Origin: a virus
Direction: 5' to 3' (one strand)
Virus record (IMG/VR): IMGVR_UViG_3300045988_157167
Location: 11,551-75,550 of that record
Length of the DNA stretch: 64,000 nucleotides
A program made the position numbers and the translations under genes. Within the stretch, counting starts at the first letter, position 1. Every line of letters begins with the position of its first letter. Positions 3,138 through 63,134 of the stretch are shown in pieces. The notes below the pieces were generated by a model. It searched no databases. It saw only the letters and a program-made list of their open reading frames with translations, and was not told the origin of the DNA.

Positions 3138-3818
3138 ATACCGATAGGTAAAACTTTGATATACTTTATGTATAATCTCCATCTTTTCCCCCGGTCCAAA
3201 CCGTACGTGCGACTTTCATCGCATACGGCTTTCCATCGTAAAATTTTACGACTAGAGGCCTTCGCTCCTAATAGTTTTATCCTCCTTTATACATTACTGT
3301 ATATAGTAACTATCGGCTATTAATCAACACTACTATGCTTCCTCTGACTTCTTCTATTTTCAACGATATAGCAATCTCCAATAGAAGATCTCCTAAGTTC
3401 CAATAAGATTATCCCTTTTTTTACTTCGACTTAGGTTTCCTCTGTATGTTATAAGCTATATATAACTGACTACTTTAATCATCATATATTTAGTAAAACT
3501 TTAAATGTAAACAAAGTACGAATGTTTACATTAACTTATAACACTTCAAACAAGGATTCGTCTCCTAACCATATCAAAGTTTTTAAAGATGACCACTCCA
3601 TATAGTTATTTATATAACATCAGGCTTTGTCCTTACCGTACTTTATACAATTCGAGTGCTATCTCTTATGCATAACGGGGTATCATCAATATCACTTTAA
3701 AGTAGTTGTGATAGAAAGAAATTTCATCTTTCAATTCATCTTATTAGTTAAAGTTATAAATAACCTCTCAGCTTTTGTTCTCTATCTCAGAGCTTTTATA
3801 TGCTGAAACTTAGCGTAC
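3138..3818 (-). mobile_element. ORF-less group II intron inside the tape-measure gene
   Basis: 681 nt with no ORF on either strand. It starts GUACG and ends GGUAU, and has a canonical domain V near its 3' end. Flanking exons join in frame to give YMGM|AGF. Confidence 0.8.
3198..3231 (-). ncRNA. Group II intron domain V
   Basis: Minus strand reads AAGCCGUAUGCGAUGAAAGUCGCACGUACGGUUU. It has the AGC triad in the lower helix, a 2-nt CG bulge, a 5-bp upper helix and a U-G-closed GAAA tetraloop. Confidence 0.85.
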
Positions 3819-11385: not shown

Positions 11386-11631
11386 CTATAATTCTATATT
11401 TTCTATTTTTGCTCTTTCTTCTAATACATTTCTGTATGCTTCCATATATACTAATTGAGTGTGTAATATTTCATATGAGCAGTTAGGAGTAAAATTAAGA
11501 GTTCCATTTTTATATCCTTCTAGCATTCTTTGCAATCCAGCTATTCTATTATCTAGTTGATAATATTCAGCTTTAAATCTATCTTTAAAATCTGTTCCTA
11601 ACATTAAATCTACTGTATCTTGTAATTTCAT
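11386..11631 (-). CDS. Hypothetical protein
   Basis: ORF track; good RBS. Confidence 0.55.
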   Translation of the reverse strand: MKLQDTVDLMLGTDFKDRFKAEYYQLDNRIAGLQRMLEGYKNGTLNFTPNCSYEILHTQLVYMEAYRNVLEERAKIENIEL

Positions 11632-14981: not shown

Positions 14982-16733
14982 TTACACACCCAATCTCCTT
15001 CTATCCATGAACCTAATTATATTTTTTGTTTTTATTTTTAGTATTTTATTTGCAAAATCAGAAACAACATCTGCAGCATCATCATGTAGTGTATATGCTG
15101 TTCCTTGAAAGTCTAATATCTGATCTGTAAATGCTTTATTATTATCTGCAAATATTATTTGGCCATTATTAACTGGATCTTGTATAGTTGCAATACGATT
15201 ATCTTTATTTTTATTATTCATATCATTAATAAATATTAAATTTCTTTTCTTTAGTTCAGGTATCTTTTCAATCATTTGTTGTATAGTAGTTACATCTGAA
15301 CCTAAGTAGGTATTTCTTTCTATAGATATATGAGTTATATCTGTAAATTCTAATAAAATATCAATAATTGTATTACAATACTCTGTGAAACTCATTTTTT
15401 CAAGTACCATTCTTCTGATATATTTAAAGTCATTTTCTCCTAATGAACCTACTATCATTGCAAATGAGTCAGTTTTCTTTTTCTTATTAGAAGAATTATC
15501 TCCCGCTGGGTCAACACAAAGCATTGTTTTTAAAAAAATATGGTCCTCTATTTCCTCTACTGATTGAGTTCTTATAGATTTAAACCATTTTTCACCTATA
15601 CTACTAGCATCATTCATTTTTTCTGACATAAATGATTTTCTATTACTCCAGTATTTAACTGCTATATCTATAAAAAAATCCCATTTTTCTTCCCATAAAA
15701 CAGGATATTTCATTTCTTCTTTATGTTTTTCATAAAATTTTCTAGCTTGTATTTGAGGATCTTCTATTTTATCGTCAAAATAAATCTTTTTACATTTAAT
15801 CCATAAATCACTTTCAAATATATCATCTATTGTTTGGCCATCTTCTAATAAAACAGCTCTATTCATAATAGTATGATAATCTCTATTTCTGCTAAGTTTA
15901 CTTATTAAGCAATCAATATGTAAAACAGTTCCTATACTTACAAACTTAGTTGCTGATTTAACTTTTTTACCTTTTCTAAATACTGCAGTATCTCCAACTT
16001 CCTCTACTTCTTTACACCATCTATTCCATTTCTTTTCTCTAGCATCTTCAGTTATAACATCAACTTCGGATTGATAGTCATCGGCAATAACCACCGTAGG
16101 TCTTACACCTCCCCAGTTAGCACCACGGACAGAAGTAGTTGAACCTACTGCTCTTATATATGTATCATTGGTAAACTCAATTTCGCCTGAATTAACCTTG
16201 TAATAATCTTTCGAATTAGGCTTTTTACCTTTTAAATCTATTAAGTTTCCAAATACATCTTTTATAAGCTCATTTTCCAGGAATTCTTTTTTTATAGAAT
16301 TTAAGAATTGCTCGGCATCATCTGCAGTTTTAGCACCTAATAGAGTAAACTTTGATTTTTTATAGCAATGTAACCATATTGCAAGTGTTTTATCGCATAT
16401 AGTTGACTTAGCAAGTCCTCTAGGTTCTACTATATTAAGTTTATCGTATAAATCCTGTACAAAGGCCTCCGAGAGAACTCTCCATATTTTATAATGTTCT
16501 TCACATAATTCCCTTGCACTGTTGTCATCACTTGGCACGAAAGTTGTTCTAAGAAAATATAAACTAAAAAAAGTTATATCCTTTTCTCCAATTACCTTTG
16601 CAACTTCATTAGGAAGATATTTTTTTCTGATATTATTTTGATTTTTAGGAAAATATTTCTTTAAATACTTATCAATCAAGTATATAGAGTATTTATTATC
16701 ATCAGCAAACTCTATATCATCAAAATAAATCAT
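14982..16733 (-). CDS. terL: Terminase large subunit
   Basis: 583 aa. Walker A-like EPRGLAKST, a DD acidic motif (VVIADDYQ), and nuclease-half acidic residues. Confidence 0.8.
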   Translation of the reverse strand: MIYFDDIEFADDNKYSIYLIDKYLKKYFPKNQNNIRKKYLPNEVAKVIGEKDITFFSLYFLRTTFVPSDDNSARELCEEHYKIWRVLSEAFVQDLYDKLNIVEPRGLAKSTICDKTLAIWLHCYKKSKFTLLGAKTADDAEQFLNSIKKEFLENELIKDVFGNLIDLKGKKPNSKDYYKVNSGEIEFTNDTYIRAVGSTTSVRGANWGGVRPTVVIADDYQSEVDVITEDAREKKWNRWCKEVEEVGDTAVFRKGKKVKSATKFVSIGTVLHIDCLISKLSRNRDYHTIMNRAVLLEDGQTIDDIFESDLWIKCKKIYFDDKIEDPQIQARKFYEKHKEEMKYPVLWEEKWDFFIDIAVKYWSNRKSFMSEKMNDASSIGEKWFKSIRTQSVEEIEDHIFLKTMLCVDPAGDNSSNKKKKTDSFAMIVGSLGENDFKYIRRMVLEKMSFTEYCNTIIDILLEFTDITHISIERNTYLGSDVTTIQQMIEKIPELKKRNLIFINDMNNKNKDNRIATIQDPVNNGQIIFADNNKAFTDQILDFQGTAYTLHDDAADVVSDFANKILKIKTKNIIRFMDRRRLGV

Positions 16734-16762
16734 CTAATCACTCCCTTCTGAATTTATTTACA

Positions 16763-16795
16763 TAAAAAAAGAGCAGCCAATTAATAACTACTCTT
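16763..16795 (-). terminator. Weak terminator-like hairpin; shares about 30 nt with the hairpin at 63382-63413
   Basis: Stem aagag/ctctt with a long loop and a T-run on the minus strand. Confidence 0.35.
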
Positions 16796-17048
16796 TTGTA
16801 TTTTTCTTTTTAACATATTTTTTCTTCTTTGATTTATTTTTCTTCTTAGGAAAAGTCTTTTCTAGTTTGCTTTTAGTCATTGCTCTACCATTTAGGTAAC
16901 AAATAACTTCTTCTTTTTCTTGCTTACTCTTTTTAACGATATTGTGAGACGTTTTTCCATTGATAAATTTATTCATAACCCCAAAATTTCTAGAGTTTTT
17001 ATCTTTTTCAACATTTAAATAAGCTAATTCATATAATTTCATAGACAT
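16788..17048 (-). CDS. Small lysine-rich protein (ORF track start at 17144 rejected; start at 17048 behind RBS agggag)
   Basis: The tracked N-terminal 32 codons overlap tRNA-Arg. The internal Met has a proper RBS. Confidence 0.5.
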   Translation of the reverse strand: MSMKLYELAYLNVEKDKNSRNFGVMNKFINGKTSHNIVKKSKQEKEEVICYLNGRAMTKSKLEKTFPKKKNKSKKKKYVKKKNTKE

Positions 17049-17065
17049 TCTCCCTTTAAATTTAA

Positions 17066-17143
17066 TGGCTGGCTTAGTGAGATTCGAACTCACAACAAAC
17101 CATGGTCCGTAGCCATGTGCTCTATCCGTTGAGCTATAAGCCA
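17066..17143 (-). tRNA. trnR: tRNA-Arg (anticodon ACG), CCA encoded
   Basis: Cloverleaf read by eye: acceptor TGGCTTA/TAAGCCA, D arm GCTC/GAGC, anticodon arm CATGG-CTACGGA-CCATG, T arm GTGAG-TTCGAAT-CTCAC. The variable loop is an unusual 7 nt. Confidence 0.75.
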
Positions 17144-17144
17144 A

Positions 17145-18017
17145 TATCTATTAGAAGGCTTGAGATTAGAGCCTTCTGTAGACACCTTTCACGGCATTAT
17201 TTATTCTCCGTTTATCCACGCACCTAATACGTATTGTCCATGACTGGTTGTAATTTTATAGTGCCACAAAACCCTAACACGAGGCACTCTACTATAGTAC
17301 TACTCAACACTTCGTATTCTGTCTGCCTTGCGAGCAACAAAGGTTTGCAAAACCACCATGCAACTTCATGTTAAACGATTCACCCTTGGGAGGTGTTACG
17401 CACTAGATTATATCATGCAATGATATTCTAGTATTAAGCCACTTTCATACTATAAGGGAACAGACTTTTCCTTTTATTGTTTTGTTATCATAGACAATTT
17501 ATCATCCAAAATTAATATTCTCTATGCCTGTATAAATCTGAATTAAATTTGACAGACGTTGTGCTGTTCTTGAAGATTCGTTTCCTTTTGAGACACGAAA
17601 TACTTCACAACATCAGTGTGTTTCATTGAATTCTTACTCCACGTTGTTAATACATACTCCAGCCCTTTCACTGTTTCACTATTAACAATGGTTAGTGCCC
17701 TTTGTTATCAGCATCGGACTATATAACCTCCTGATTATGTCTCGCTACATGACCAATTTGGCGTGAGGTAAATTATTCAGTGCCACCTGAAAATCTTCGA
17801 TATACGGTTCGCCTTTTCGAAGACTGTCCCTCTTGGGTTACGTAGTTATCTCCACTACTATCAATTCATGAAGACGTTGGACATTCAGTTCTGCTTAGAT
17901 GGACTAGTTTAACTAGCGGCATGTAGTCAGCATGCCTTTACACTGCTCACACAATGCTATCCTAAAGATACTAAGCTACCTAAAATAGATTTAGATTTAT
18001 TTTTTAAAACACATACA
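17145..18017 (-). ncRNA. Large (~870 nt) structured non-coding RNA candidate flanked by two tRNAs (GOLLD/ROOL-class guess)
   Basis: No ORF >=60 aa on either strand, and visibly higher G+C than coding DNA. Many local stems, e.g. 17153-17177, 17794-17823, 17918-17936. The minus strand is purine-rich. Confidence 0.55.
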
Positions 18018-18091
18018 TGGCTGGGCGTAATAGATTCGAACTATTATTCCAGGAATCAAAATCCTGTGTCCTACCTTTGAACGAACACCCA
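18018..18091 (-). tRNA. trnQ: tRNA-Gln (anticodon UUG), CCA encoded
   Basis: Acceptor TGGGTGT/ACGCCCA, anticodon arm CAGGA-TTTTGAT-TCCTG, T arm AATAG-TTCGAAT-CTATT; 74 nt. Confidence 0.85.
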
Positions 18092-18136
18092 ATATTTAAC
18101 TGATAATTATATTCTAATCTCCCAACAATATTTTTT

Positions 18137-18156
18137 CAATCGGAACATATTCCTAA
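18137..18156 (-). promoter_or_regulatory. Copy 1 of the 20-bp motif TTAGGAATATGTTCCGATTG, followed by N11-TTGGGA-N8-TATAAT (TATAAT at 18106-18111)
   Basis: Exact motif. The predicted transcription start is ~8 nt upstream of the tRNA-Gln 5' end. Confidence 0.6.
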
Positions 18157-18207
18157 TAAAAAAAGCCAGATTTCTCTGACTTTTAAAATGTATTATTATT
18201 TATTTTC

Positions 18208-18789
18208 TTATTGATATTCTTTCATTCTTCTAATTAGTGTAGCTTTGCTTATTCCTGTTACTTCTGTAACTTGCTTATAACTCATGCCACTTTGCTTTAG
18301 ATCAATGGCATGCTTAATTTGTTTATTTGAATACTTTTGCGGTCTACCTTCCGTAAAATCTTCTCTTTGTCTAGCTATTGCCTTGCCTTCTTTTGTTCTT
18401 TCAACTATCATGTCTCTTTCAAATTCGGCAAATCCAAGGAAGATAGTTCTTATTAGCTTTCCGTTAGGTGTATTATCCATTAAACCTAAGTTTACTATAT
18501 GAACCTTTATATCTTGTTCTAGTAATTTGTCTATTATGCTTAATCCATGTATTGTACTTCTAGCAAATCTGTCTAACTTAGTTACTACTAATGTATCTCC
18601 TGGTTTTAATTGTTTAAGAAGTTTATCAAAATTTTTGCGATCTTCTTGTTTCTTTGTTCCAGTATAAGAATCAACTACTATGTTTTCTTCTAAACACCCA
18701 TTTGCTAATAATATTTCTGTTTGACCTTCTAATGAGTTTCCATCTTTCTTTTGTGAGTAAGTACTAACTCTTGCATATCCATATTTCAT
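18208..18789 (-). CDS. Small serine recombinase (resolvase/invertase family)
   Basis: [13 protein letters not shown] catalytic Ser motif, [12 protein letters not shown], and a C-terminal HTH. Confidence 0.85.
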
Positions 18790-18888
18790 ATTTACAACCC
18801 CCTATGATTATCTTTTATACTTATATTGTATCATAAGTCTTAAAAGTTGTAAACCTATTTATGGACTTTAAATATTTGTTTTTAACAT

Positions 18889-20151
18889 TTAAACATATGC
18901 AAATGTATATCCATGCGTTGTTTTTCCTTTTCCTTGTAATACCCTTTCTATATTTTTTCTTGGGATATTTAGTTTTCTTGCACAAATCCCTATTCCCTCA
19001 ATAATTTCTTCTGAATTATCTTTTAAATTTGTTGCTTTAATAGTTTTCTTAGGAGCAACATTTTTGCTATATTTAGCTTTTACTGCCAATATAGAAGTGT
19101 AATCCTTACTTTCTATATATGGAATTAACTGTTGTTTTACATTTATAGCATCTTCTTCTGTTTTAAAATGGCCTATTGGTATCTGATTTCCATTAAAGGT
19201 TATTCTTAAAAACCAACTTTTCCTTTTAATATCATAATTAACTCCTTTTTCTTTGCTCTTATACATATTTTTATTTCTTATTTTTCTTAGCTTTTTACAT
19301 TGCTCTTGTAATCCTTCTCTTTCACACATTTTTTCAAGTGTATATCTCGAATGTCCAGTAAAATTTTCCATATCTATAAACGTTTCGATACCTTTTTCCA
19401 TTCCTTTTAAAAATTTTTGTTTCATTCGAGTATTTTTCACATCTTTAAAAACTTTACCATAATCTTTTATTTTTTCTTTGTAAAAAATAGTTCTAATGCT
19501 ATTTTCTGCAAGATTATATTTATTACAAAGTTCTTCTAAAGAATAATTATAAGAATATAAATCCTCTATAATTTTTTTATTTCTACACTCTATAAAATTT
19601 AATTGTTTGATTTTTTCATTTAAATCGGATCTCACATCTATCCAAGAGTCAAGATTTTTAATGCTATAAATGATATTTTCTCTAACTCCAGTTAATTTAG
19701 ATATTTTCTTTATAGAGATTGGATTATTTTCTAGTACTGACAACATTTCCTTAACCTTAGCAATTTGATGCTCTGTATAATCACTTCTTTCTCTATTTAC
19801 TTTCTTTAAATTTTCTAATCTTTTCTTTCGTATTTCTTCTGGAATTTCATTTAGAAAATAGTCTCCACCTTCTGTCATATTAAATCCATTATTATAAGTA
19901 TCATATTTTTTTATATAATACTTTTCTAAATCATTTAAAATGTCAAGTTCATCACAATAATATATAGCTTTAAACTTAAAAGCATCTTCTCCATATTTAT
20001 TCCAACTTCTTTGAAGATATTCATTATCATGATTACCTCTATTTAAAGCACTTATATGGCTTTTCCATCTTTTTTCAAAATCTTGGATCGTTTGTCCTAT
20101 ATACATATCACCTGTTACTACATTTGTTATTGAGTAAATTCCAAAATACAT
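18889..20151 (-). CDS. GIY-YIG homing endonuclease with AP2-like DNA-binding domain
   Basis: N-terminus YFGIYSITNVVTGDMYIGQT...R...H..L..G.H.N. C-terminal GVNYDIKRKSWFLRITFNGNQIPIGHFKTEEDA is AP2-type. Confidence 0.8.
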   Translation of the reverse strand: MYFGIYSITNVVTGDMYIGQTIQDFEKRWKSHISALNRGNHDNEYLQRSWNKYGEDAFKFKAIYYCDELDILNDLEKYYIKKYDTYNNGFNMTEGGDYFLNEIPEEIRKKRLENLKKVNRERSDYTEHQIAKVKEMLSVLENNPISIKKISKLTGVRENIIYSIKNLDSWIDVRSDLNEKIKQLNFIECRNKKIIEDLYSYNYSLEELCNKYNLAENSIRTIFYKEKIKDYGKVFKDVKNTRMKQKFLKGMEKGIETFIDMENFTGHSRYTLEKMCEREGLQEQCKKLRKIRNKNMYKSKEKGVNYDIKRKSWFLRITFNGNQIPIGHFKTEEDAINVKQQLIPYIESKDYTSILAVKAKYSKNVAPKKTIKATNLKDNSEEIIEGIGICARKLNIPRKNIERVLQGKGKTTHGYTFAYV

Positions 20152-20190
20152 TCTATCTCACCTCTTAATTATATTATATCACAAACTTAT

Positions 20191-20230
20191 ATCAGTTACA
20201 ATCAGTTGTAATCAGTTGTAATCAGTTGTA
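20191..20230. repeat. Four tandem 10-bp repeats atcagtt(a/g)(c/t)a
   Basis: Units at 20191-20200, 20201-20210, 20211-20220 and 20221-20230. They overlap the -35 of the RHH gene promoter. Confidence 0.8.
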
Positions 20231-20244
20231 ATATATTTTATAAT
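20216..20244 (+). promoter_or_regulatory. Sigma-A-type promoter TTGTAA-N17-TATAAT for the RHH gene
   Basis: Hexamers at 20216-20221 and 20239-20244. Confidence 0.55.
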
Positions 20245-20262
20245 TAACTCGAGGTGATTATT

Positions 20263-20421
20263 TTGGCAAGAAAAGATTTAAAAAACAGAGTTCCAATTGG
20301 TTCCGCTATTGATAAAGAGTTGTATCAATGGCTTAAAGAATATTCTAACCAATCATCTGTTCCAATATCTAAACTTTTAGATAAAGCTATTCAACTTCTT
20401 AAAGAGTCTACTGTTAAGTAG
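20263..20421 (+). CDS. Ribbon-helix-helix (CopG/Arc-like) protein, 52 aa, TTG start
   Basis: Read by eye: (M)ARKDLKNRVPIGSAIDKELYQWLKEYSNQSSVPISKLLDKAIQLLKESTVK. RBS gaggtg lies 6 nt upstream. Below the ORF-track size cutoff. Confidence 0.6.
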   Translation: MARKDLKNRVPIGSAIDKELYQWLKEYSNQSSVPISKLLDKAIQLLKESTVK

Positions 20422-20494
20422 GCTTTTTATTTTTTCTCAAGTTTCCAAAAAATTTTTTGTAGGATTTTTTTTGAGGTTTCATTTTCCCCTCAAG

Positions 20495-20955
20495 TCTCAT
20501 TTTTTGCTGAGCAGTTCTCTGTGGCTTGGCGCACGCGTTGAAAATACTAGGGTATAGAATGCACCGCCCCCTTACCTGGAGTACCCTACCCCACCGAGAG
20601 GCCCTTGTTTTGCCTTGTTACTTATGACACTAAGTTATAAGACAAGTAAACATATTGATATCACTTACTATGTCGAAGTGTATCATAACTTATAAGTATT
20701 GATACCTTATAGAGTACTATTAATGCTGTTGTCTTTTACTATACTGGTCTTACTGTTCACTCTGTTGTCTTATACCTTCTGTGCGCCCTTCTAAGATGTT
20801 ATACTTTGTCTTGCCTGTCCTTATTCTATTGGTAATATATTCCTTCTCTTAATAGTTCTTATAGCTTAATATTATTAAATCAACTATTTAAATAGTTTTT
20901 TAAGGGCAACACCTCGTAAATATGGACCGCGATAAGCGCCCCCCTACATTCCCTC
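20495..20955 (-). ncRNA. Second structured non-coding RNA candidate (~460 nt) immediately downstream of terS
   Basis: No ORFs. G+C-rich blocks at 20521-20604 and 20904-20944. 7-bp stem 20548-20554/20582-20588. 16-bp palindrome 20882-20897. The minus strand is purine-rich. Confidence 0.4.
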
Positions 20956-21423
20956 TTATGATATTTCACTATCTGTTATATCTATTACATTCCCTTCTAT
21001 AACATCTGAATCATTAAAATCATCCCAAGAAGGCTCATTATTATTTTCTTTTTCAGTTTCAGGAGTAATAACTGTTTTAGTTTCCACTTTTGAAATTGGA
21101 GCGCCAGCCAATCTATTAAGTAAGTATATGCTTGCATCTAGTCTAACCTTCTCGCTCTTAGCTGATCTTGATAGGTCGAGAATATTTTGTAAAAGTTGAT
21201 TAGAGAATTTCATTATACGATTGTCAACTTTATTTTTAGCAACTTCATATTGTCTATCAAGTTCTTCCATGAATTCTGGTCTTTTCTTCCAGCGCATTAT
21301 AGTTTTTTCACAAACATCTAATTGGTCTGCTACTTCTTTATTAGTTGCACCATACACTAATAATTCTGCTGCAATTAATTGGTCTTCTGTTAACCTAGAA
21401 TCTTTTTCTCGTGGCATAATCAA
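20956..21423 (-). CDS. terS: Terminase small subunit (HTH, phBC6A51-like)
   Basis: LTEDQLIAAELLVYGATNKEVADQLDVCEKTIMRWKKRPEF helix-turn-helix, with an acidic C-terminus. Confidence 0.6.
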   Translation of the reverse strand: MIMPREKDSRLTEDQLIAAELLVYGATNKEVADQLDVCEKTIMRWKKRPEFMEELDRQYEVAKNKVDNRIMKFSNQLLQNILDLSRSAKSEKVRLDASIYLLNRLAGAPISKVETKTVITPETEKENNNEPSWDDFNDSDVIEGNVIDITDSEIS

Positions 21424-21929
21424 TTACCCTCCTTCCTTTTTATTTCTTCTCTTAAGTGATAATATAAAATTTTATGGACCATTGAAGGTGATTCTTTTCT
21501 ATCACATGCAATAATATGAAGATTATCGAATTTGGCCATTAATGAAATTACCATAGCCGCGCTAGCGTTAGGATGAACATGGCTTATATATTCACCTTTT
21601 AAAAGTTTGATATAATAATCCTTGTCTTGTATAAGCAAGAATAATTTAACTCCTGCTTCTTTTGCTCTTTTTAGTTCCCTTATAAAACGGTTATCTTTAT
21701 TTTCGTCTTTTGCTGGATCCATTAAGTTTCCTAGCAATTCATCTAATCCTGCTTTTCTTTCTATTAAAATATTAGGTATATATTCTCCTTGATATCTAAT
21801 AGCATAATCTCCAGTATCTAATTTTTCTCTACTGGCCTGTATTCCATTTTTTATAAGAGTATCTTGGATTAATGTATCTTGTTCCCTTGTATCGCATATA
21901 ATTTCGTAATCTTCATTTTTTATTTTCAT
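21420..21929 (-). CDS. ERCC4/Mus81-type nuclease
   Basis: DTREQ ... GDY ... ERK..LDEL signature. Confidence 0.7.
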   Translation of the reverse strand: MKIKNEDYEIICDTREQDTLIQDTLIKNGIQASREKLDTGDYAIRYQGEYIPNILIERKAGLDELLGNLMDPAKDENKDNRFIRELKRAKEAGVKLFLLIQDKDYYIKLLKGEYISHVHPNASAAMVISLMAKFDNLHIIACDRKESPSMVHKILYYHLREEIKRKEGN

Positions 21930-42450: not shown

Positions 42451-43698
42451 TTATATCACACTATCTAACCAATAAATTTTATTATATTTCCAAAGTAATC
42501 TACATTTTCTTACATTGACTTTTTTGCAATGTTTTGTAGGACTTTGAAAATTTAATGCGTTCAAATGTGGATATAATGCTGTAACATATCCTTTATGAGT
42601 TTCTCCATTTCTGTAAGTATATTCAACCAAATCTCTATGTTTAATTCCTAATACATTATCTGTTTTTGCTTTTGATTTTCTACGCATCGGTTTAATCATC
42701 CATTCTTTTATATTGCAAGTATCTGGAAAACAATTTGTTATACAAATAGCATCGTTTGAATGAGATTTTTCTATATTCCATTCAATTCTTTTATTTGCAG
42801 TATCTCCACCTGTTGTAAGATGTAATATTCCTAATTGTTTAATATTTTCTCTAAGATAATTTTTACCTTGCATGACATGCATTGCATAATCAAATCTTTT
42901 TGGCTTACTTTTTATTTTGGTGAAATATCTCTCTTCAAATTCTCGTTCTTTCCCTTCTGTCTTTTGATGACAAGAAGAACAAAGAGTAATGAGATTCCCA
43001 ATAGTATTTGCTCCACCAAATCTCTTTGCTCGAATATGATGAACCTCAAGTACAGTATTTGTTTTTCCACATTCTTGACATTTACAACTATCTCTTAATA
43101 TTGTCGCTTTTCTAAGATTTTCATCTAATCTATTATTCTTCTGATATTGCCAATTATAAGGTTTATATCCATCGGCCATTGCTCTTATATCTATTGCTAC
43201 ATCTTCAAGATAATATTCTTTAATATTTATCCATTTATTTAATTGATATAAAACTCTAAGAATAGAATCTTTCTTTTGTTTAATACTTGGCGCTAATCTA
43301 TTAGTTTTTTTTGAAGATGCTCTATTATTGAATCTAGGTTTACGATATCTTTTATGATATCTACGGTATTGTCTATATCCTCTACGAACATCCATTAAGT
43401 GTTTTACATCTTGTCTTTGTTCAATAGTTCCTTTAAATACAACTTTATTTTTACTTGGACATTTTTGAACAATTGCTATTCCAACATGAGAACTACCATC
43501 GTCAATTCCACAAACCATATGACTTTCATCTTCGTCATCAGGTTCAACTTCTTTTTCTAACTGAATTACCATAGGATATTTACTTTTTAATTTTGCTCGA
43601 CCTTTTCTAATCAAATACCAACCTTTATTTACTTTAGTTGGAGCTAAAGGTCTATTGTTTTTATCTACAACAAAACAATATTCAATTTTATTTTCCAT
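42451..43698 (-). CDS. iscB: IscB RNA-guided nuclease (copy 1)
   Basis: PLMP-type N-terminus ([26 protein letters not shown]), Ruv[16 protein letters not shown], an Arg-rich bridge helix, Ruv[28 protein letters not shown], and Ruv[13 protein letters not shown]. Confidence 0.85.
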
Positions 43699-50755: not shown

Positions 50756-50832
50756 AAAATTTATTCTAAAATAACTGCTTTTTCTCGTAAATGTAAAATA
50801 TTTGGTTAATATTCCACAAAAACACTAGAAAA

Positions 50833-50862
50833 GAAAAAAAATCCACCTTCCGCAAGATGGAT
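50833..50862 (-). terminator. Rho-independent terminator of mini-cassette 3
   Basis: Stem atccaccttccgcaagatggat plus an 8-T run on the minus strand. Confidence 0.65.
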
Positions 50863-50945
50863 TTTCTTCTAAATAATCATAGGTCATATATAAGATATAG
50901 AAATACTTTTAACAATTTAATTATAACATTCCAATACTTATTTGA

Positions 50946-50965
50946 AAATCGGAACATATTCCTAA
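50946..50965 (-). promoter_or_regulatory. Copy 2 of the 20-bp motif (TTAGGAATATGTTCCGATTT)
   Basis: 19/20 identity to the other copies. TGtTATAAT follows 20 nt downstream on the minus strand. Confidence 0.55.
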
Positions 50966-50971
50966 CTTTTA

Positions 50972-51010
50972 CAAAAAAACAACCGCTCTTGATGAGGGTT
51001 AAGAGCGGTT
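50972..51010 (-). terminator. Rho-independent terminator of mini-cassette 2
   Basis: 10-bp stem aaccgctctt/aagagcggtt plus a T-run on the minus strand. Confidence 0.7.
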
Positions 51011-51133
51011 AGGGAGTATTGTTTCATACCATAAATTCTAATGATAAACAATATACTAGAAATATTTTAGGAATAAAAAAATATAATCTTAGATAACTAT
51101 ATTATTAATGATACTACTGTTTTTTCAAAACTT

Positions 51134-51153
51134 CAATCGGAACATATTCCTAA
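51134..51153 (-). promoter_or_regulatory. Copy 3 of the 20-bp motif
   Basis: Exact TTAGGAATATGTTCCGATTG. Confidence 0.55.
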
Positions 51154-51160
51154 TTAACAA

Positions 51161-51197
51161 TAAAAAATAACTACCTCACAGATGGAAAGGTAGTTAT
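51161..51197 (-). terminator. Rho-independent terminator of mini-cassette 1
   Basis: 10-bp stem ataactacct/aggtagttat plus a T-run on the minus strand. Confidence 0.7.
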
Positions 51198-51285
51198 TCT
51201 TTAAGAAAGGAGTACTTATATTAGTAATATAGCTAAAACTTTAAGTCTTATACAATATAAGATTAACACCTTTCATTTCCAATTA

Positions 51286-51305
51286 CAATCGGAACATATT
51301 CCTAT
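51286..51305 (-). promoter_or_regulatory. Copy 4 of the 20-bp motif (ATAGGAATATGTTCCGATTG); contains the TAG stop of the upstream ORF
   Basis: 19/20 identity. Confidence 0.55.
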
Positions 51306-51679: not shown

Positions 51680-53062
51680 TTATATCGCAAAATTACTTTC
51701 GTATTGCCAATTATTATTATGATTTATGAATTTCAAGGCATAAATTGAAACTTGTTTATATTTTTTGCCTGGTATAGTTATATACTCATCATTTATATTT
51801 TTTACATAAGCAGATGATTTGCCAGAAAAACCTGTAATATAACCAATTTGACCAAAGATTTCTACTTTATCATTAAGGTAAAAACCATTTGCAAAACTTG
51901 TATTTTTCTCATTTCTTTTGCTTTCAGTGTTTTTAGTTTTTCTACCTTTTCTAGCTGTCGCTTCATGCAGTGAACGTTTTTTCTTTCTAAACTGCTTTAT
52001 TTTAAAAACTTCATCACAGTTTTGATTTATACATTCAACTTTACTTATTGCAATAGCATCGTTATAATGAGTTTTCTCAAGTCCAAGTTTTTTTCTTCTT
52101 GGTGTTGTTATAGAACCATAAGTTATGTTAGCTTGAGGATATTTTTTAAATACTTTTACCCTCATTGAGTTCATAAACGGTGGTTCTTTATAAGTTTTCA
52201 TCTTTTTCTTTTTTATCATCCATTCATAAAGTATGCCGCCTGGTTTATGATTCTCAGATGTGTGACAATCAGTACAAATTGTAGCTAAGTTGTCAGCTCT
52301 ATCGCTTCCACCTTTACTTTTATAAATTACATGATGTGTATGAAGTACTTTATCTTTACTTTTTTTACAAACCTGGCAAGTGTAATTATCTCTTGCAAAG
52401 ACAAAGTATCTCGTATTATAAAAGCCGAAGGCTTCGCCTTGTTGATAATCAGCACCTTCTATTTCTGGATTTATCATTTTAGCCATATCAAATTTACCTA
52501 CTTCAATACTTAAATTGCATTTTGGAAGTAAATTATAATATTTATCAATCCAGAAAAATGTATTATCTATTTTAGACTGTATGCTTGGCGGCAGCCAACC
52601 AACAGGTCTATTTGAATCTATGTTTGTAGATAGTGTTCTCCAGTTCTTTTTGGAGTCACTACCTTTTTTAAGAGTTTTTAGTTTTGCTCCTTTTGGAGCA
52701 TTAAAAACTCTTTTATTTCTGAAGTTAAATTTACATCTTCTATATCTAGTTTTTCTAGAACGTCTACCTCTTCTTAGAATTTTTTTAGTTTCTATTAAAC
52801 TACTTACATCTTGTCTAAGTTCTATTTCACCTTTTGCTAATACTTTATTTTGGGTAGTTACAGCTATACCAATGTTTTTAGAACCTAAATCGACACCTAA
52901 ATTAGTATTTTGTGTATATCCATAAGAACCGTAAATAAGTTTTATTGTAAATGGTTTATAATTTACTATCTTTGCTTTCTTTTCTTTTATTAATTTTCTA
53001 GCACGTTGAGGCTTACAAGGCATCAACGGCTTATTGTTTTTATTAAGTACGTATACTACCAT
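51680..53062 (-). CDS. iscB: IscB RNA-guided nuclease (copy 2; start moved to MVVYVLNKNNKPLMPC behind RBS ggagg)
   Basis: Literal PLMP motif, RuvC-I GVDLGSKNIGIAV, RuvC-II SIEVGKFD, HNH CQVCKK..HTHHV..N..TIC..CH, and RuvC-III HYNDAIAIS. The tracked 28-codon N-terminal extension overlaps the RNA block. Confidence 0.85.
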   Translation of the reverse strand: MVVYVLNKNNKPLMPCKPQRARKLIKEKKAKIVNYKPFTIKLIYGSYGYTQNTNLGVDLGSKNIGIAVTTQNKVLAKGEIELRQDVSSLIETKKILRRGRRSRKTRYRRCKFNFRNKRVFNAPKGAKLKTLKKGSDSKKNWRTLSTNIDSNRPVGWLPPSIQSKIDNTFFWIDKYYNLLPKCNLSIEVGKFDMAKMINPEIEGADYQQGEAFGFYNTRYFVFARDNYTCQVCKKSKDKVLHTHHVIYKSKGGSDRADNLATICTDCHTSENHKPGGILYEWMIKKKKMKTYKEPPFMNSMRVKVFKKYPQANITYGSITTPRRKKLGLEKTHYNDAIAISKVECINQNCDEVFKIKQFRKKKRSLHEATARKGRKTKNTESKRNEKNTSFANGFYLNDKVEIFGQIGYITGFSGKSSAYVKNINDEYITIPGKKYKQVSIYALKFINHNNNWQYESNFAI

Positions 53063-53403
53063 AAAGTATACCTCCTTCGAGTTATTTGAATCACCGACCA
53101 AAAGTGGTGGGCGACACGAAATTTTCCCTTCGCCAATGTTAAGCATACTTCTTGCACCAAGTTGACTGTTCTTACCTCACAGAACTGTTTACAGAGCCCG
53201 AACAACAAAAGGTGCTAGGGAATCACACCAAGCTGTATTGATACACTTAACGTAGCTTATTCGCTGTGCCAAATCGCACATCCCGACAAGCTAAGGCTAG
53301 ACAATATTAAGGCAAAAGCCTTACCCCCAAATCTAGAGTCATACTGGGGCTTATATTGAAATACAAGCCCCTTCTATAATCTCCGTAGGTGATTTAGGAG
53401 GGG
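53063..53403 (-). ncRNA. Omega-RNA (HEARO-type) candidate for IscB copy 2, including the left-end hairpin
   Basis: ~340 nt, ORF-free and markedly G+C-rich. Stems include ggggctt/aagcccc, aaggc-tttt-gcctt, tgtgc/gcaca, ggcga/tcgcc and cacc/ggtg. Confidence 0.7.
53368..53403 (-). repeat. Left-end (LE) subterminal hairpin of the IscB element
   Basis: Plus strand reads ccccttctataatctccgtaggtgatttaggagggg. Confidence 0.7.
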
Positions 53404-56742: not shown

Positions 56743-57036
56743 TTAATCGTCAAATTCATCTTCTATATTGCTGTTAAAATCTGTACCTTTATCTATTTCT
56801 TTAGATTCTTCTTGTTTATCTGTTTCTATATTAAAGCCATTTATTTGTAATAAATTTAGAATTTCTCTAGCAACTTCATCAACGTTTTTTATTAGATTGT
56901 TTTCTCTTTTCATTTCTACAGTAGCTAAATCTTTTAAAAATCCAGAAGCACTTCGTTTTGAAGTTATATAGTTAAATAATTCAATTTCACTATCAGAAAA
57001 TCGAATTCTAACCTCTCTGTTTATTTTATTTTCCAT
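56743..57036 (-). CDS. parR: ParR-like centromere-binding protein (RHH N-terminus)
   Basis: Follows and overlaps parM. REVRIRFSDSEIELFNYI beta-strand/helix, with an acidic tail. Confidence 0.6.
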   Translation of the reverse strand: MENKINREVRIRFSDSEIELFNYITSKRSASGFLKDLATVEMKRENNLIKNVDEVAREILNLLQINGFNIETDKQEESKEIDKGTDFNSNIEDEFDD

Positions 57037-57953
57037 TTTGCAACTCCTAACATGTAAAATGCTTTCGCATTAACTTGAACATCGGAAACTGCTATTGTTT
57101 GAGGATATTTTTGTTTAAAGTATTTATATCCGAATCTTTCTCCGCCTCCAGCTAAAATTATATTACAAGCTGATGCATCAGGGAAAGCTCCTTTAAATTC
57201 GTTTATAACTTCTTCCATAAAGTCATCTAAGTATTCTTCTTTGAATTTATAATCTGTTATATTAAACATTTTCATATCTCCATCAAACACTTTCTTAGTA
57301 TCTTCTAGAGATATTTTACAGTATTTAGTGCTTATATATCTTCTAACTTTCTTATAAAGATCTAAAAGACCAATATCTAAACTTTCACCATCAATAAATT
57401 TCATACTTTCATCAAATATAGCTACATCAGTAGAACCTCCACCAATATCAACTATAAGAGTTCTAACACCTTTTTCACATTGATTGATAACTTTTAGATT
57501 CTTAATACCATAACTTTCTGGTCTAACAATAACTTCTTCTATCAGAATGTTTCTTGTTATTTGGTCTTCACCAACTCCAATTTGTATTTTTTTGAAATTG
57601 TTATCAGTTATAAATTGTTTCAATTGTTTGTGATACTCATTAAACTGACCAGCTGGAATTCCTATAACCAACTTTACTCTATCATGTTCACAAGTCTTTG
57701 CTAAACCATAATATAATAGTTGAAGAAAATTATCTTTTTCAAATTTTAGATGTTCATTTTTAAATAGCCCTTGATTAACTACCCATTTTTCACCATCAAT
57801 TTCAAAAATTTCGTTTTCTCCTAATTCTTTTACATTAGAATATTTTTCAATTCTACTTTCAATTATTAATTCGCTTGTTGTTCCTGTAATATCCCCGGAA
57901 AAAATACTAGTGATGTTTCCGATATCAGCTCCTGCAACACTAAAATTACTCAT
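57021..57953 (-). CDS. parM: ParM-like actin-family partition ATPase (start at MSNFSV behind RBS ggagg)
   Basis: AGADIGN phosphate-1 motif, VDIGGGSTDV phosphate-2 motif, LAGGG adenosine motif. Confidence 0.8.
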   Translation of the reverse strand: MSNFSVAGADIGNITSIFSGDITGTTSELIIESRIEKYSNVKELGENEIFEIDGEKWVVNQGLFKNEHLKFEKDNFLQLLYYGLAKTCEHDRVKLVIGIPAGQFNEYHKQLKQFITDNNFKKIQIGVGEDQITRNILIEEVIVRPESYGIKNLKVINQCEKGVRTLIVDIGGGSTDVAIFDESMKFIDGESLDIGLLDLYKKVRRYISTKYCKISLEDTKKVFDGDMKMFNITDYKFKEEYLDDFMEEVINEFKGAFPDASACNIILAGGGERFGYKYFKQKYPQTIAVSDVQVNAKAFYMLGVAKWKIK

Positions 57954-57970
57954 ATATATAACCTCCATGA

Positions 57971-60962: not shown

Positions 60963-61232
60963 TTAAGTATGTTTTACTCTATCTCTAAGTTCTCCTTTTT
61001 TACCATCGTTAAATTGTCGAACTTCACTTAAATAACCTGTAATTCTTCTGATTCTTTCAAATGAAACAGGAACAAGTTTATATTCTAAATCTACATACCC
61101 TTTATCGTCTATTGTTATATTTAAATAATCAATTTCTCGATTTGGATATTTTTTATGAATATGTTTTATGTAAGCTTCGATTTCTCTTTGTTCAGCATGA
61201 ACTCCTTCTGGAGTTTTTATATTTATTTTCAT
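60963..61232 (-). CDS. Small protein carrying an NrdD-type C-terminal glycyl-radical motif
   Basis: C-terminus RIRRITGYLSEVRQFNDGKKGELRDRVKH matches the R-x-x-G-Y...N-x-G-K..E...R..H tail of anaerobic ribonucleotide reductases. Confidence 0.5.
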   Translation of the reverse strand: MKINIKTPEGVHAEQREIEAYIKHIHKKYPNREIDYLNITIDDKGYVDLEYKLVPVSFERIRRITGYLSEVRQFNDGKKGELRDRVKHT

Positions 61233-61545: not shown

Positions 61546-61565
61546 CAATCGGAACATATTCCTAA
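61546..61565 (-). promoter_or_regulatory. Copy 5 of the 20-bp motif; contains the TAG stop of the FtsK-like gene
   Basis: Exact TTAGGAATATGTTCCGATTG, followed by N11-TTGGGA-N8-TATAAT as at copy 1. Confidence 0.6.
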
Positions 61566-62566
61566 CAATCATTAGGGATATAAAAACATTGTATTTCTTT
61601 TGTATCTGTAGCTGTAAATATTTTACCATGGCCTTTGCCTCTAAGTTCAGTTAATGCATCATAATCTCCACAAACCACTTTGCTTGCTTCTTTAGTATTA
61701 ACTTTTAATCCTATTTTAGTATTTATATTAGATTTAAGTAAACCTGGCAAAACTTCAGCATACGGTGTTTGAGTTGTTAATATTACATAAATATTAGCTG
61801 CTCTACCTTTAGACAATAATTCACCTAATAACTTATAAATAATTTTATTTTCTTTAGGATCAAAGGTAGCTAGTTCCTCAATGATTAAAAATATTGATTT
61901 AAATTTTTTATTATTTTTTCTTATTTCAAGATATCTTTTATTCATTTCATTAATTAATCTGTTTAATATTTCTTCTATACCATTAATACCTTCGCCATAG
62001 TATACAGCTTTATCCTTATATTTATATAAATCAATATACTTAGTATCTTGAATGTACAATTCAACATCTTTTCTTTTAATAAGATTATTTATAACAACAT
62101 TTAAACAAACTGATTTACCACTACCCGTTGCACCTGCAATCAATAAATGACACTCATTAGGTGAGTAATATTTCCAGTAGACTATATTTCCATTATCTAA
62201 ATCTATTCCTATTGGAACACCTTTTTTATCATTAAACAAATAATCGTTATAATTATTGTTAATTACACCATCTGTAATACTAATTAATGCTAAATTGTTT
62301 TTATATTCAATTTTTAAATTATTCTTTGGGACTTTAAGAAAAGTACTTATGTCTAATTTATGTTTTATAAAATCATTTATATTTAAACCTATTGGAATAG
62401 TGAAATAATATTTATTTACGCATTGGTTAATCAATAAAGGATATTCTTCGCTTCTATTACATAATTTAATTTCATAAAACAACCTATCCCATTGATCTAT
62501 TTTGAAAATCATATTATATAAAGAATTAGCAGCATTAAAAATGCCATTTACAAATAATTTAACCAA
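61562..62566 (-). CDS. FtsK/SpoIIIE-family DNA translocase ATPase
   Basis: GATGSGKS Walker A and FLIIEE Walker B. Confidence 0.8.
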   Translation of the reverse strand: MVKLFVNGIFNAANSLYNMIFKIDQWDRLFYEIKLCNRSEEYPLLINQCVNKYYFTIPIGLNINDFIKHKLDISTFLKVPKNNLKIEYKNNLALISITDGVINNNYNDYLFNDKKGVPIGIDLDNGNIVYWKYYSPNECHLLIAGATGSGKSVCLNVVINNLIKRKDVELYIQDTKYIDLYKYKDKAVYYGEGINGIEEILNRLINEMNKRYLEIRKNNKKFKSIFLIIEELATFDPKENKIIYKLLGELLSKGRAANIYVILTTQTPYAEVLPGLLKSNINTKIGLKVNTKEASKVVCGDYDALTELRGKGHGKIFTATDTKEIQCFYIPNDC

Positions 62567-63134
62567 TTATTTCACCAACCTTTTCAATCTTTACATTATC
62601 ATAGATAACTTTCATATCTATTAATTTTTTATTCAAACCTTGATTGTTAATAACGTAAAGCAAAGGCATGACCTCCCAATTTGTATTATTAATTATAACT
62701 TCTTTGAAATTGTAATACTTACTAATACAATCATGTGGGCTTAATTGTACTTCTAATAATATTTTTTTTGTTCTGTTATTCTTTTTTACATTTATATAAC
62801 CATCAGAAATTATATTGCCTAAAGAAAAATTTTTCTTAAATTCTATAATTTCATAATTGTTTTTAATTAATTTTACAAGAAAATCAGTTATATAAAGATC
62901 ATGTTCCACTAATTTCTTACTTGGCTTTTTGTCTAAATAATAAACATAAACACTTCTAGTATTTTCTACTTTAAACATTTTTCTATTTACATAACCATCA
63001 TCAGCTAATCTTTTCAATCTTCTCAAAGGTACATTTTGATGCTTATTTTCAAACAATAATTCTTGCACTTGTTTTCTAGTACATATTCTACTTAATGTTA
63101 AAAATTCTAAAATCTCCATATCTCTATTTGTCAT
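62559..63134 (-). CDS. Replication-relaxation family protein
   Basis: N-terminal wHTH (RDMEILEFLTLSRICTRKQVQELLF). Typical pairing with an FtsK-like ATPase on Firmicute plasmids. Confidence 0.6.
   Translation of the reverse strand: MTNRDMEILEFLTLSRICTRKQVQELLFENKHQNVPLRRLKRLADDGYVNRKMFKVENTRSVYVYYLDKKPSKKLVEHDLYITDFLVKLIKNNYEIIEFKKNFSLGNIISDGYINVKKNNRTKKILLEVQLSPHDCISKYYNFKEVIINNTNWEVMPLLYVINNQGLNKKLIDMKVIYDNVKIEKVGEIIG

Follow-up and report, generated by a model that had tools for sequence, protein, structure and literature searches.

Evidence for a complete GOLLD RNA gene in a two-tRNA array of a tailed phage from metagenomes

GOLLD RNAs are among the largest non-coding RNAs of bacteria and phages; their cage was solved in 2025. 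The reference for the family (RF02032) is Weinberg et al. 2009. Each GOLLD joins a conserved 3' domain to a variable 5' domain (PMC12286853). The env-38 GOLLD, of 833 nucleotides (nt), forms a 14-mer cage in which the loops of hairpins P21a and P21b kiss symmetrically, and the level of GOLLD rises during lysis (Kretsch et al. 2025, PMC12286853); the GOLLD of S. agalactiae has 700 nt and forms a 12-mer cage (PDB 9L0R, according to PMC12990946). In tRNA arrays of Mycobacterium, GOLLD carries a tRNA-Phe in its linker, according to the summary of Morgado et al. 2020 in PMC12990946. Here we analyse a 64,000-nt stretch of a viral genome (IMG/VR record IMGVR_UViG_3300045988_157167, positions 11,551 to 75,550; hereafter, the window), in which a block between two tRNA genes is, with a probability that we put at about 90%, a complete GOLLD RNA gene (5' domain, ~17980-17616; 3' domain, 17615-17157) within a two-tRNA mini-array of a phage accessory region.

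The identification rests on a scan of the whole window with Rfam 15, which places GOLLD (RF02032) at 17157-17615 on the minus strand with 187 bits against a gathering score of 150, an E value of 4.7e-51 and coverage of model positions 1-416 of 416. ROOL (RF03087), group I and group II introns and all other large-RNA families gave no match there at gathering score, nor in a relaxed scan at E up to 1 over 16500-21500. An initial annotation of the same DNA had proposed a giant ornate RNA of the GOLLD or ROOL kind for this block, and had suggested a search of the minus strand with the large-RNA models of Rfam; that search returns GOLLD above threshold and no ROOL. The parts of the RNA are listed below.

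17981-18017, minus strand: AU-rich spacer from tRNA-Gln to the first conserved hairpin, which differs between clades
17967-17980, minus strand: first hairpin, GGUA-GCUUAG-UAUC, which opens the conserved structure
17157-17615, minus strand: conserved 3' domain of GOLLD (RF02032, 187 bits)
~17615-17554, minus strand: first hairpin of the 3' domain, after which the 75-nt linker comes
17564-17570, minus strand: AGAACAG, in the internal loop of the first 3'-domain hairpin, 5' partner of the linker-bracketing helix
17474-17548, minus strand: variable AU-rich linker of 75 nt, the site where sister phages hold a tRNA
17457-17463, minus strand: CUGUUCC, just after the linker, 3' partner of the linker-bracketing helix
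17323-17354, minus strand: two adjacent hairpins, 17342-17354 (loop UUUGCAA) and 17323-17337 (loop CGCAA), aligned to paired hairpins of the Rfam model
17153-17177, minus strand: 3'-terminal hairpin AGAAGGCU/AGCCUUCU with conserved loop CUAAUCUCA, from the sequence and the Rfam alignment

A large structured RNA of some other class, whether undescribed, ROOL-like, a ribozyme or an intron, might merely resemble GOLLD. Such a reading could draw on the 5' half of the block, which lies outside the Rfam model (this covers the conserved 3' domain only) and for which no likeness in sequence to the 5' domain of env-38, or to that of the Streptococcus phage Javan636, could be detected. We regard it as very improbable: the 3' half matches GOLLD at all 416 model positions, 37 bits over the curated threshold; the other families are negative even at E up to 1; and a conserved 3' domain with a variable 5' domain is how GOLLD is defined (PMC12286853), with opening motifs that by eye are common to the block and the Javan636 GOLLD. 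The undescribed class that the initial annotation had held equally possible is therefore unsupported, because the full-length match (187 bits against 150) is accompanied by a covarying 5' domain, and the block is a further example of a known RNA family, not a new class.

Within the 3' domain, the loops of the two adjacent hairpins hold self-complementary GC and CG. Their alignment, read together with PMC12286853, makes the pair 17342-17354 and 17323-17337 candidates for P21a and P21b, the kissing-loop hairpins of env-38. The env-38 sequence that we recovered from the supplement of Kretsch et al. has 816 nt, 17 nt short of 833, and for this reason the published env-38 helix names and residue numbers were not transferred to the window.

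Upstream of the Rfam match, 17616-17980 (~365 nt) forms a GOLLD 5' domain of a Firmicute or gut type, with 16 helices in its consensus fold. We collected GOLLDs from IMG/VR by a 3'-domain motif, phage relatives by terL and further loci by a 5'-domain motif. An nhmmer search from 17616-18017 reaches 107 loci, and all 11 of those tested with Rfam have a full GOLLD 3' domain directly downstream (167-206 bits). Clustering the 91 full-length homologues left 20 sequences at 97% identity, and 10 clusters when the cutoff was 85%; the alignment used for the fold (A2) holds 18 of these sequences, and RNAalifold gives it a consensus of 98 pairs in 16 helices. The two domains were analysed separately, as the long-range pairs that RNAalifold proposed for all 1094 columns together were doubtful. 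Standard pairs occupy 90.8% of the paired cells in A2, compared with 36-42% when the partners are slid by 1-3 columns, and 60 of the 98 pairs have changes on both sides. The covariation score of the fold, 0.533 against at most 0.125, is reached by none of 500 shuffles. Thus the homology search and covariation check that had been suggested along with the initial proposal yielded both homologues on phage contigs and strong compensatory pairing.

In this fold, the loop GCUUAG (17971-17976) of the first hairpin is complementary to CUAAGC at 17893-17898. This pairing is helix 1 of the consensus; it is 100% paired, with compensatory changes in 3 of its 6 pairs, and occurs across clades as GCUUGA/UCAAGC, GCAUAG/CUAUGC and GCUUCA/UGAAGC. 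It could be either a pseudoknot or a contact between copies of the RNA. The stem of the hairpin also has compensating differences between clades, seen by inspection of the alignments rather than counted.

Decayed coding sequence or a dead tRNA array, that is, a non-functional spacer, would also lack ORFs (open reading frames), and gains and losses are concentrated at the locus, where some relatives have other tRNAs instead. Compensatory pair changes over at least 10 clades, G-U pairs that are strand-specific and the full covariance-model match bring the chance of this close to nil, as does the maintenance of the Gln-GOLLD-Arg block at 85-100% identity in ~30 related phage contigs. Relative to shuffles, the folding energy of the block has a z-score of -2.35 for the minus strand and of -4.0 for the plus strand. 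Because the minus strand is only mildly better than shuffles and the plus strand is better still, folding energy alone proves nothing; it is the match to the covariance model, together with the covariation, that establishes the family membership and fold of the block, and not thermodynamics.

The extent of the block follows from its neighbours. ARAGORN and the Rfam tRNA model agree on tRNA-Gln(ttg) at 18018-18091 and tRNA-Arg(acg) at 17066-17143, both on the minus strand, and the inter-tRNA block between them spans 17144-18017. Its 874 nt, the absence of any ORF of 60 amino acids (aa) or more (the longest ORF wholly within it on either strand has 46 aa) and its G+C content (0.34-0.40, compared with 0.21-0.32 in the flanking genes) all bear out what had been described. 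The special purine richness reported for its minus strand dissolves on comparison, the purine and GC skew being the same as in neighbouring minus-strand genes. The block was also said to abut both tRNAs, which is true of the ORF-free interval but not of the RNA structure: the conserved structure begins at ~17980, 38 nt after tRNA-Gln and past the AU-rich spacer, and at the other side 9-13 nt separate tRNA-Arg from the last conserved hairpin, which runs to 17153, and from the Rfam match, which runs to 17157. The structured part comes to ~825 nt in total, of 874 nt from tRNA to tRNA. All four stems that had been named are present. The stem at 17153-17177 is the terminal hairpin of the Rfam GOLLD model, and that at 17918-17936 is a covarying helix (helix 3 of the 5'-domain consensus); the stem at 17794-17823 is preserved in a relative (L236; L numbers designate related contigs) by compensating changes from UCUUCGA/UCGAAGA to CCUCA/UGAGG, and that at 17260-17288 is a local hairpin within a variable insert of the 3' domain.

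The linker (17474-17548) varies between relatives that are otherwise 90-99% identical and have near-identical 5' domains, as judged by near-identical nhmmer scores. A blind search for covarying stacked pairs among 145 distinct GOLLD 3' domains found a 7-bp helix, 6 pairs of which covary, formed by the two segments that bracket the linker; in the window copy itself this helix has 6 bp. It is a conserved long-range pairing of the pseudoknot type, either within one RNA or between copies. By homology, the linker would correspond to the disordered linker inside the cage. Among phages with nearly identical GOLLD 5' domains, its contents range from AU-rich filler, as in the window, to a tRNA-Ile, a tRNA-Asn or a tRNA-like unit with an 8-nt anticodon loop, and every insert falls between both strands of the covarying bracketing helix. 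The GOLLD linker might on these grounds be an exchangeable cargo slot and the family a tRNA-handling device, an idea that we consider quite doubtful. If it were true and the embedded tRNA were excised by RNase P and 3' processing, the bracketing helix would join a two-piece GOLLD; if the tRNA were left in place, the cage would store it in its lumen.

The linker-embedded tRNAs of three relatives (L141:5152-5227, L146:3256-3332 and L150:3272-3347) have one scaffold with a changing anticodon loop, read as Ile(GAU), Asn(GUU) and an 8-nt loop 'ggtt'. This could represent anticodon remodelling, or decay into a tRNA-like structural module.

The related contigs provide a set of natural variants of the array.

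L141: tRNA-Ile in the linker
L146: tRNA-Asn in the linker, then Arg-Ile-Ser
L150 and L149: tRNA-like unit with an 8-nt anticodon loop in the linker
L149: additionally without 208 nt of the 5' domain
L153: Gln-Ile-Ser, no GOLLD
L138: Ile-Ser only
L122-L125: a single tRNA-Asn

The array of L153 is that of L146 minus GOLLD and tRNA-Arg, with the junction exactly at the CCA ends, and GOLLD is therefore a dispensable unit of the tRNA array. The tRNAs at this junction have TTCGAATCT...CCAGCCA in common, a stretch that is enough for recombination. The GOLLD-plus-tRNA module is gained or lost exactly at tRNA 3' ends, and near-identical phages that differ in the presence of GOLLD, in the tRNA in the linker and in the neighbouring tRNAs are material that could link GOLLD to tRNA biology.

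These variants also bear on a role of the block as DNA, namely as a pac or cos packaging site or a recombination site between terS and terL, in which the RNA fold would be incidental. The block lies just upstream of terL, beside genes for a serine recombinase and a GIY-YIG endonuclease, and its reverse strand folds well too. Close relatives (L122-L125, L153 and L138), however, package without the block, the nearest cultured phage has terS and terL adjacent with no insert, and the covariation maintains RNA pairs, G-U pairs included, which together make a DNA-level role extremely improbable.

The GOLLD RNA is flanked by the following features.

18161-18184, minus strand: terminator-like hairpin that ends the upstream resolvase gene and marks the upstream limit of the tRNA/GOLLD unit; relatives without the module (L122-L125) stop matching at 18160
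18106-18155, minus strand: promoter-like region with TAGGAATATGTTCCGATTG at 18155-18137, TTGAAA at 18139-18134, TAGAAT at 18116-18111 and TATAAT at 18111-18106; putative function
18018-18091, minus strand: tRNA-Gln (UUG), CCA encoded, 56.2 bits
17066-17143, minus strand: tRNA-Arg (ACG), CCA encoded, 58.4 bits; its 5' end is the likely RNase P site for the GOLLD 3' end
16788-17048, minus strand: small conserved ORF of 86 aa from the ATG at 17048 (84 aa as called in relatives), with no Pfam match

A further terminator-like hairpin (16767-16797) comes after the small ORF. The initial annotation had assigned the tRNA/RNA precursor a promoter of its own around the TATAAT at 18106-18111. That hexamer is present, and beside it, directly after the upstream terminator-like hairpin, stands the better-spaced TTGAAA-17-TAGAAT at 18139-18111; a promoter function is predicted from the sequence for either. 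The TAGGAATATGTTCCGATTG motif of ~19 nt has minus-strand copies with an exact core at 18155-18137, 51304-51286, 51152-51134 and 61564-61546, and a copy with one mismatch at 50964-50946. Its core, GTTCCGATTG, has 4 exact and 2 one-mismatch occurrences, compared with 0.99 expected, all on the minus strand except for one 1-mismatch hit on the plus strand (20290-20299). The copies lie upstream of TATAAT-like hexamers and are common to the tRNA/GOLLD unit, the lysis cassette and three short units; one of them is followed by three small ORFs, of which two look like holins by eye, and by the endolysin gene. The motif looks like a phage-specific promoter or regulator site, and late expression is suggested because it also precedes lysis genes, in keeping with the increase in GOLLD reported during lysis (PMC12286853).

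Three short tandem units at 50830-51300 on the minus strand each consist of the TAGGAATATGTTCCGATTG motif, ~100-130 nt without a convincing ORF and an intrinsic terminator (~51190-51160, 51010-50975 and 50869-50834). These units could encode small RNAs; alternatively, they could be leaders that terminate close to the promoter, of the kind known from Q-type antitermination. An ORF of 89 aa (60963-61232, minus strand), located downstream of the 61.5-kb copy of the motif, ends in ...RRITGYLSEVRQFNDGKKGELRDRVKHT, an ending that may resemble the glycyl-radical C terminus of anaerobic ribonucleotide reductases.

A genuine GOLLD could instead be transcribed by read-through from the upstream resolvase and endonuclease genes, with no promoter of its own and no processing at the tRNAs. 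All genes at the locus are on the minus strand, and matches to the promoter consensus are about as frequent as in shuffled sequence (12 found, 9.3 expected). Set against this are the terminator-like hairpin 20 nt upstream of the TAGGAATATGTTCCGATTG motif, the recurrence of the 19-nt motif at four other transcription-unit starts and the behaviour of the promoter segment in relatives, where it accompanies tRNA-Gln and is missing where tRNA-Gln is missing. We consider read-through unlikely, and a dedicated transcript the better account.

Co-transcription of tRNA-Gln, the RNA and tRNA-Arg, followed by release through RNase P and RNase Z, had been proposed from the outset. The first part fits the pattern of the family: a same-strand tRNA starts right at the 3' end in 41 of 42 GOLLDs with the window-type 5' domain, and 33 of 41 have a tRNA upstream. 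In 12 of 12 cases, 6-46 nt separate GOLLD from the tRNA downstream, and the identities of the tRNAs vary. The RNase Z cut does not hold up as well, for CCA is said to block cutting by this enzyme in Firmicutes (reportedly by Pellegrini et al. in 2003) and both flanking tRNAs encode CCA, which makes RNase Z cutting unlikely here.

We hypothesize that a dedicated promoter just past the terminator probably drives a transcript of tRNA-Gln, GOLLD and tRNA-Arg. The odds that it would be expressed late are about even, since the promoter carries the phage-specific 19-nt motif that is found before lysis genes too. RNase P cutting at the 5' end of tRNA-Arg would then set the 3' end of GOLLD, 9-13 nt past the last hairpin, and the 5' side would be freed by 3' maturation of the CCA-encoding tRNA-Gln via an endonuclease and exonucleases instead of RNase Z, a scheme for both ends that we consider likely; the 38-nt AU-rich leader would either stay or be trimmed after this maturation. 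By homology with the env-38 and S. agalactiae GOLLDs, the resulting ~840-870-nt RNA would be expected to self-assemble into a closed, RNA-only cage of 12 to 14 subunits, with the 5' domains as caps, the 3' domains as the ring and the 75-nt linker facing inward. For the family, it has been described that the RNA assembles into cages, that the linker faces inward and can hold a tRNA, and that GOLLD levels go up in lysis (PMC12286853 and PMC12990946). More speculatively, and in our view on the unlikely side, the function of GOLLD might concern phage tRNAs or late translation, for example by holding or shielding tRNAs or by timing their release; we venture this because GOLLD travels with tRNAs and sister phages put a tRNA in the lumen-facing linker.

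Several points weigh against this account. nhmmer finds no similarity between the 5' domain of the window and those of env-38 or Javan636, and because of this, and because the likeness to Javan636 is one seen by eye, the cap architecture and the subunit number cannot be read from the block. Phages with terL products 97-98% identical to that of the window carry no GOLLD, which is thus dispensable, and the window copy has no tRNA in its linker. The spacing from TTGAAA to TATAAT is a non-classical 22 nt, the better-spaced -10 element is no better than TAGAAT, and the promoter, the co-transcription and the processing at this locus are predictions from the sequence. The literature also assigns GOLLD no known function.

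The carrier is a tailed phage of ~65-75 kb from metagenomes. Its genes in the window include those for an SPP1-type portal, terL, an endolysin amidase, RecT, a DnaC-like protein, ThyX and methylases. Between a terS-like helix-turn-helix gene (20956-21423) and terL lie ~4 kb of accessory genes, namely the GIY-YIG endonuclease, the small serine recombinase, the tRNA/GOLLD unit and the small ORF. The exact terL product occurs in 247 blocks of the metagenome collection, on contigs in bins of up to 200 kb (the longest shown is 103 kb and none exceeds 200 kb); the source metagenomes are apparently from the human gut, by the look of the assembly names. A search of the one-genome-per-species collection with terL gave no match, and the cultured-phage database held no DNA relative of the block or of the surrounding 24 kb, tRNA-Arg alone being matched. 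The nearest cultured terL products are those of a Clostridium perfringens phage (45%) and a C. difficile phage (38%), and the catalytic domain of the endolysin is 79% identical to that of a Terrisporobacter phage; judged by these proteins, the nearest cultured relatives of the carrier infect Clostridia. The C. perfringens phage has terS directly next to terL and lacks an insert of this kind.

A prophage location had been assumed for the RNA. The phage is clear, but there is no integrase or host flank among the window ORFs scanned, and terL was found on metagenome contigs only. Because these contigs fall in bins of up to 200 kb and none is longer, chromosomal integration is unsupported. The window also encodes a ParM/actin-like protein (57021-57968), an FtsK/SpoIIIE-like protein (61562-62566) and a replication-relaxation protein (62559-63134), which hints that the phage may persist as a plasmid, making it a phage-plasmid, and not by integration.

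The accessory region has further ORF-poor DNA. The stretch at 20152-20955, between the GIY-YIG gene and the terS-like gene, is one of several, together with that at 50830-51300, that contradict the description of the genome as almost gap-free. Within it, 20430-20955 (~525 nt, G+C 0.37-0.38) contains no ORF of at least 30 aa wholly inside on either strand, except for plus-strand ORFs of 33 aa and 31 aa. Relatives preserve the stretch at 20152-20955 at 85-97%; it has mosaic breakpoints close to 20740, 20525 and 20430 and no Rfam match at E up to 1 beyond chance-level hits to small nucleolar RNAs.

Mobile elements are visible elsewhere in the window and in related phages. A match to the group II intron (domain V/VI) model at 3138-3233 on the minus strand (64.2 bits, gathering score 40) suggests a group II intron in the structural-gene region. 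In eight related contigs (L145-L152), the terL match covers residues 219-583 only, and in Clostridium phage vB_CpeS-1181 (L255:839-3793) terL is annotated in two pieces around an extra ORF; the gene is intact in the window, whereas in some relatives an intron or an inserted homing-endonuclease gene probably interrupts it. The window is unusually rich in homing-type nucleases, with two RRXRR-HNH genes (42451-43698 and 51680-53146) and a GIY-YIG/NUMOD gene (18889-20151); one relative (L247) has a second resolvase gene in place of the GIY-YIG gene.

The locus leaves the definition of GOLLD unchanged and adds to the family a well-populated clade, apparently from human-gut metagenomes. With env-38 it has in common a full-length 3'-domain match, two domains joined by a variable linker, a similar length (~840-870 nt in the window, 833 nt in env-38), a phage location and tRNA neighbours. 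The linker-bracketing helix is also present in env-38, as GAUAGAC/GUCUAUC at the same places. The two differ in the 5' domain, which belongs to another sequence family: among the sampled phage contigs, the env-38 type accounts for 75 loci and the window type for 107, and the two sets share no locus even after iteration. They differ too in their association with tRNAs, which are found at the 3' end in 7 of 65 and upstream in 5 of 63 loci of the env-38 type, but in 41 of 42 and 33 of 41, respectively, of the window type. This suggests that window-type GOLLD is almost always made within a tRNA transcript, unlike the aquatic env-38 type.

The Streptococcus phage Javan636 has a comparable arrangement, in which a tRNA, 329 nt, a GOLLD 3' domain (245 bits) and a second tRNA lie just upstream of terS and terL. 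Its 5' region, read by eye, begins as that of the window does, with UAUG-GCUUAG-CAUA, then GAUAA (shared motif GAUAR), a GNRA hairpin, AAAG and a downstream CUAAGC. This region is shorter than in the window (~330 nt against ~365 nt), as is the linker, and nhmmer links it to neither type of 5' domain. We conclude that the window carries a Firmicute or gut flavour of the GOLLD 5' domain that is related to the Streptococcus type, by this visual likeness, but is longer.

As in the tRNA arrays of Mycobacterium, GOLLD here is one unit of an array, and sister phages of the window hold a tRNA (Ile, Asn or tRNA-like) in the linker. The window itself has a 75-nt AU-rich linker without a tRNA, an array of only two tRNAs and a phage genome of low G+C. 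ROOL (RF03087) is likewise a large ornate RNA of phages and prophages that occurs near tRNAs and forms an RNA-only cage, which for the window would hold by homology; no ROOL model matches the window, and the two RNAs are unrelated in sequence and secondary structure.

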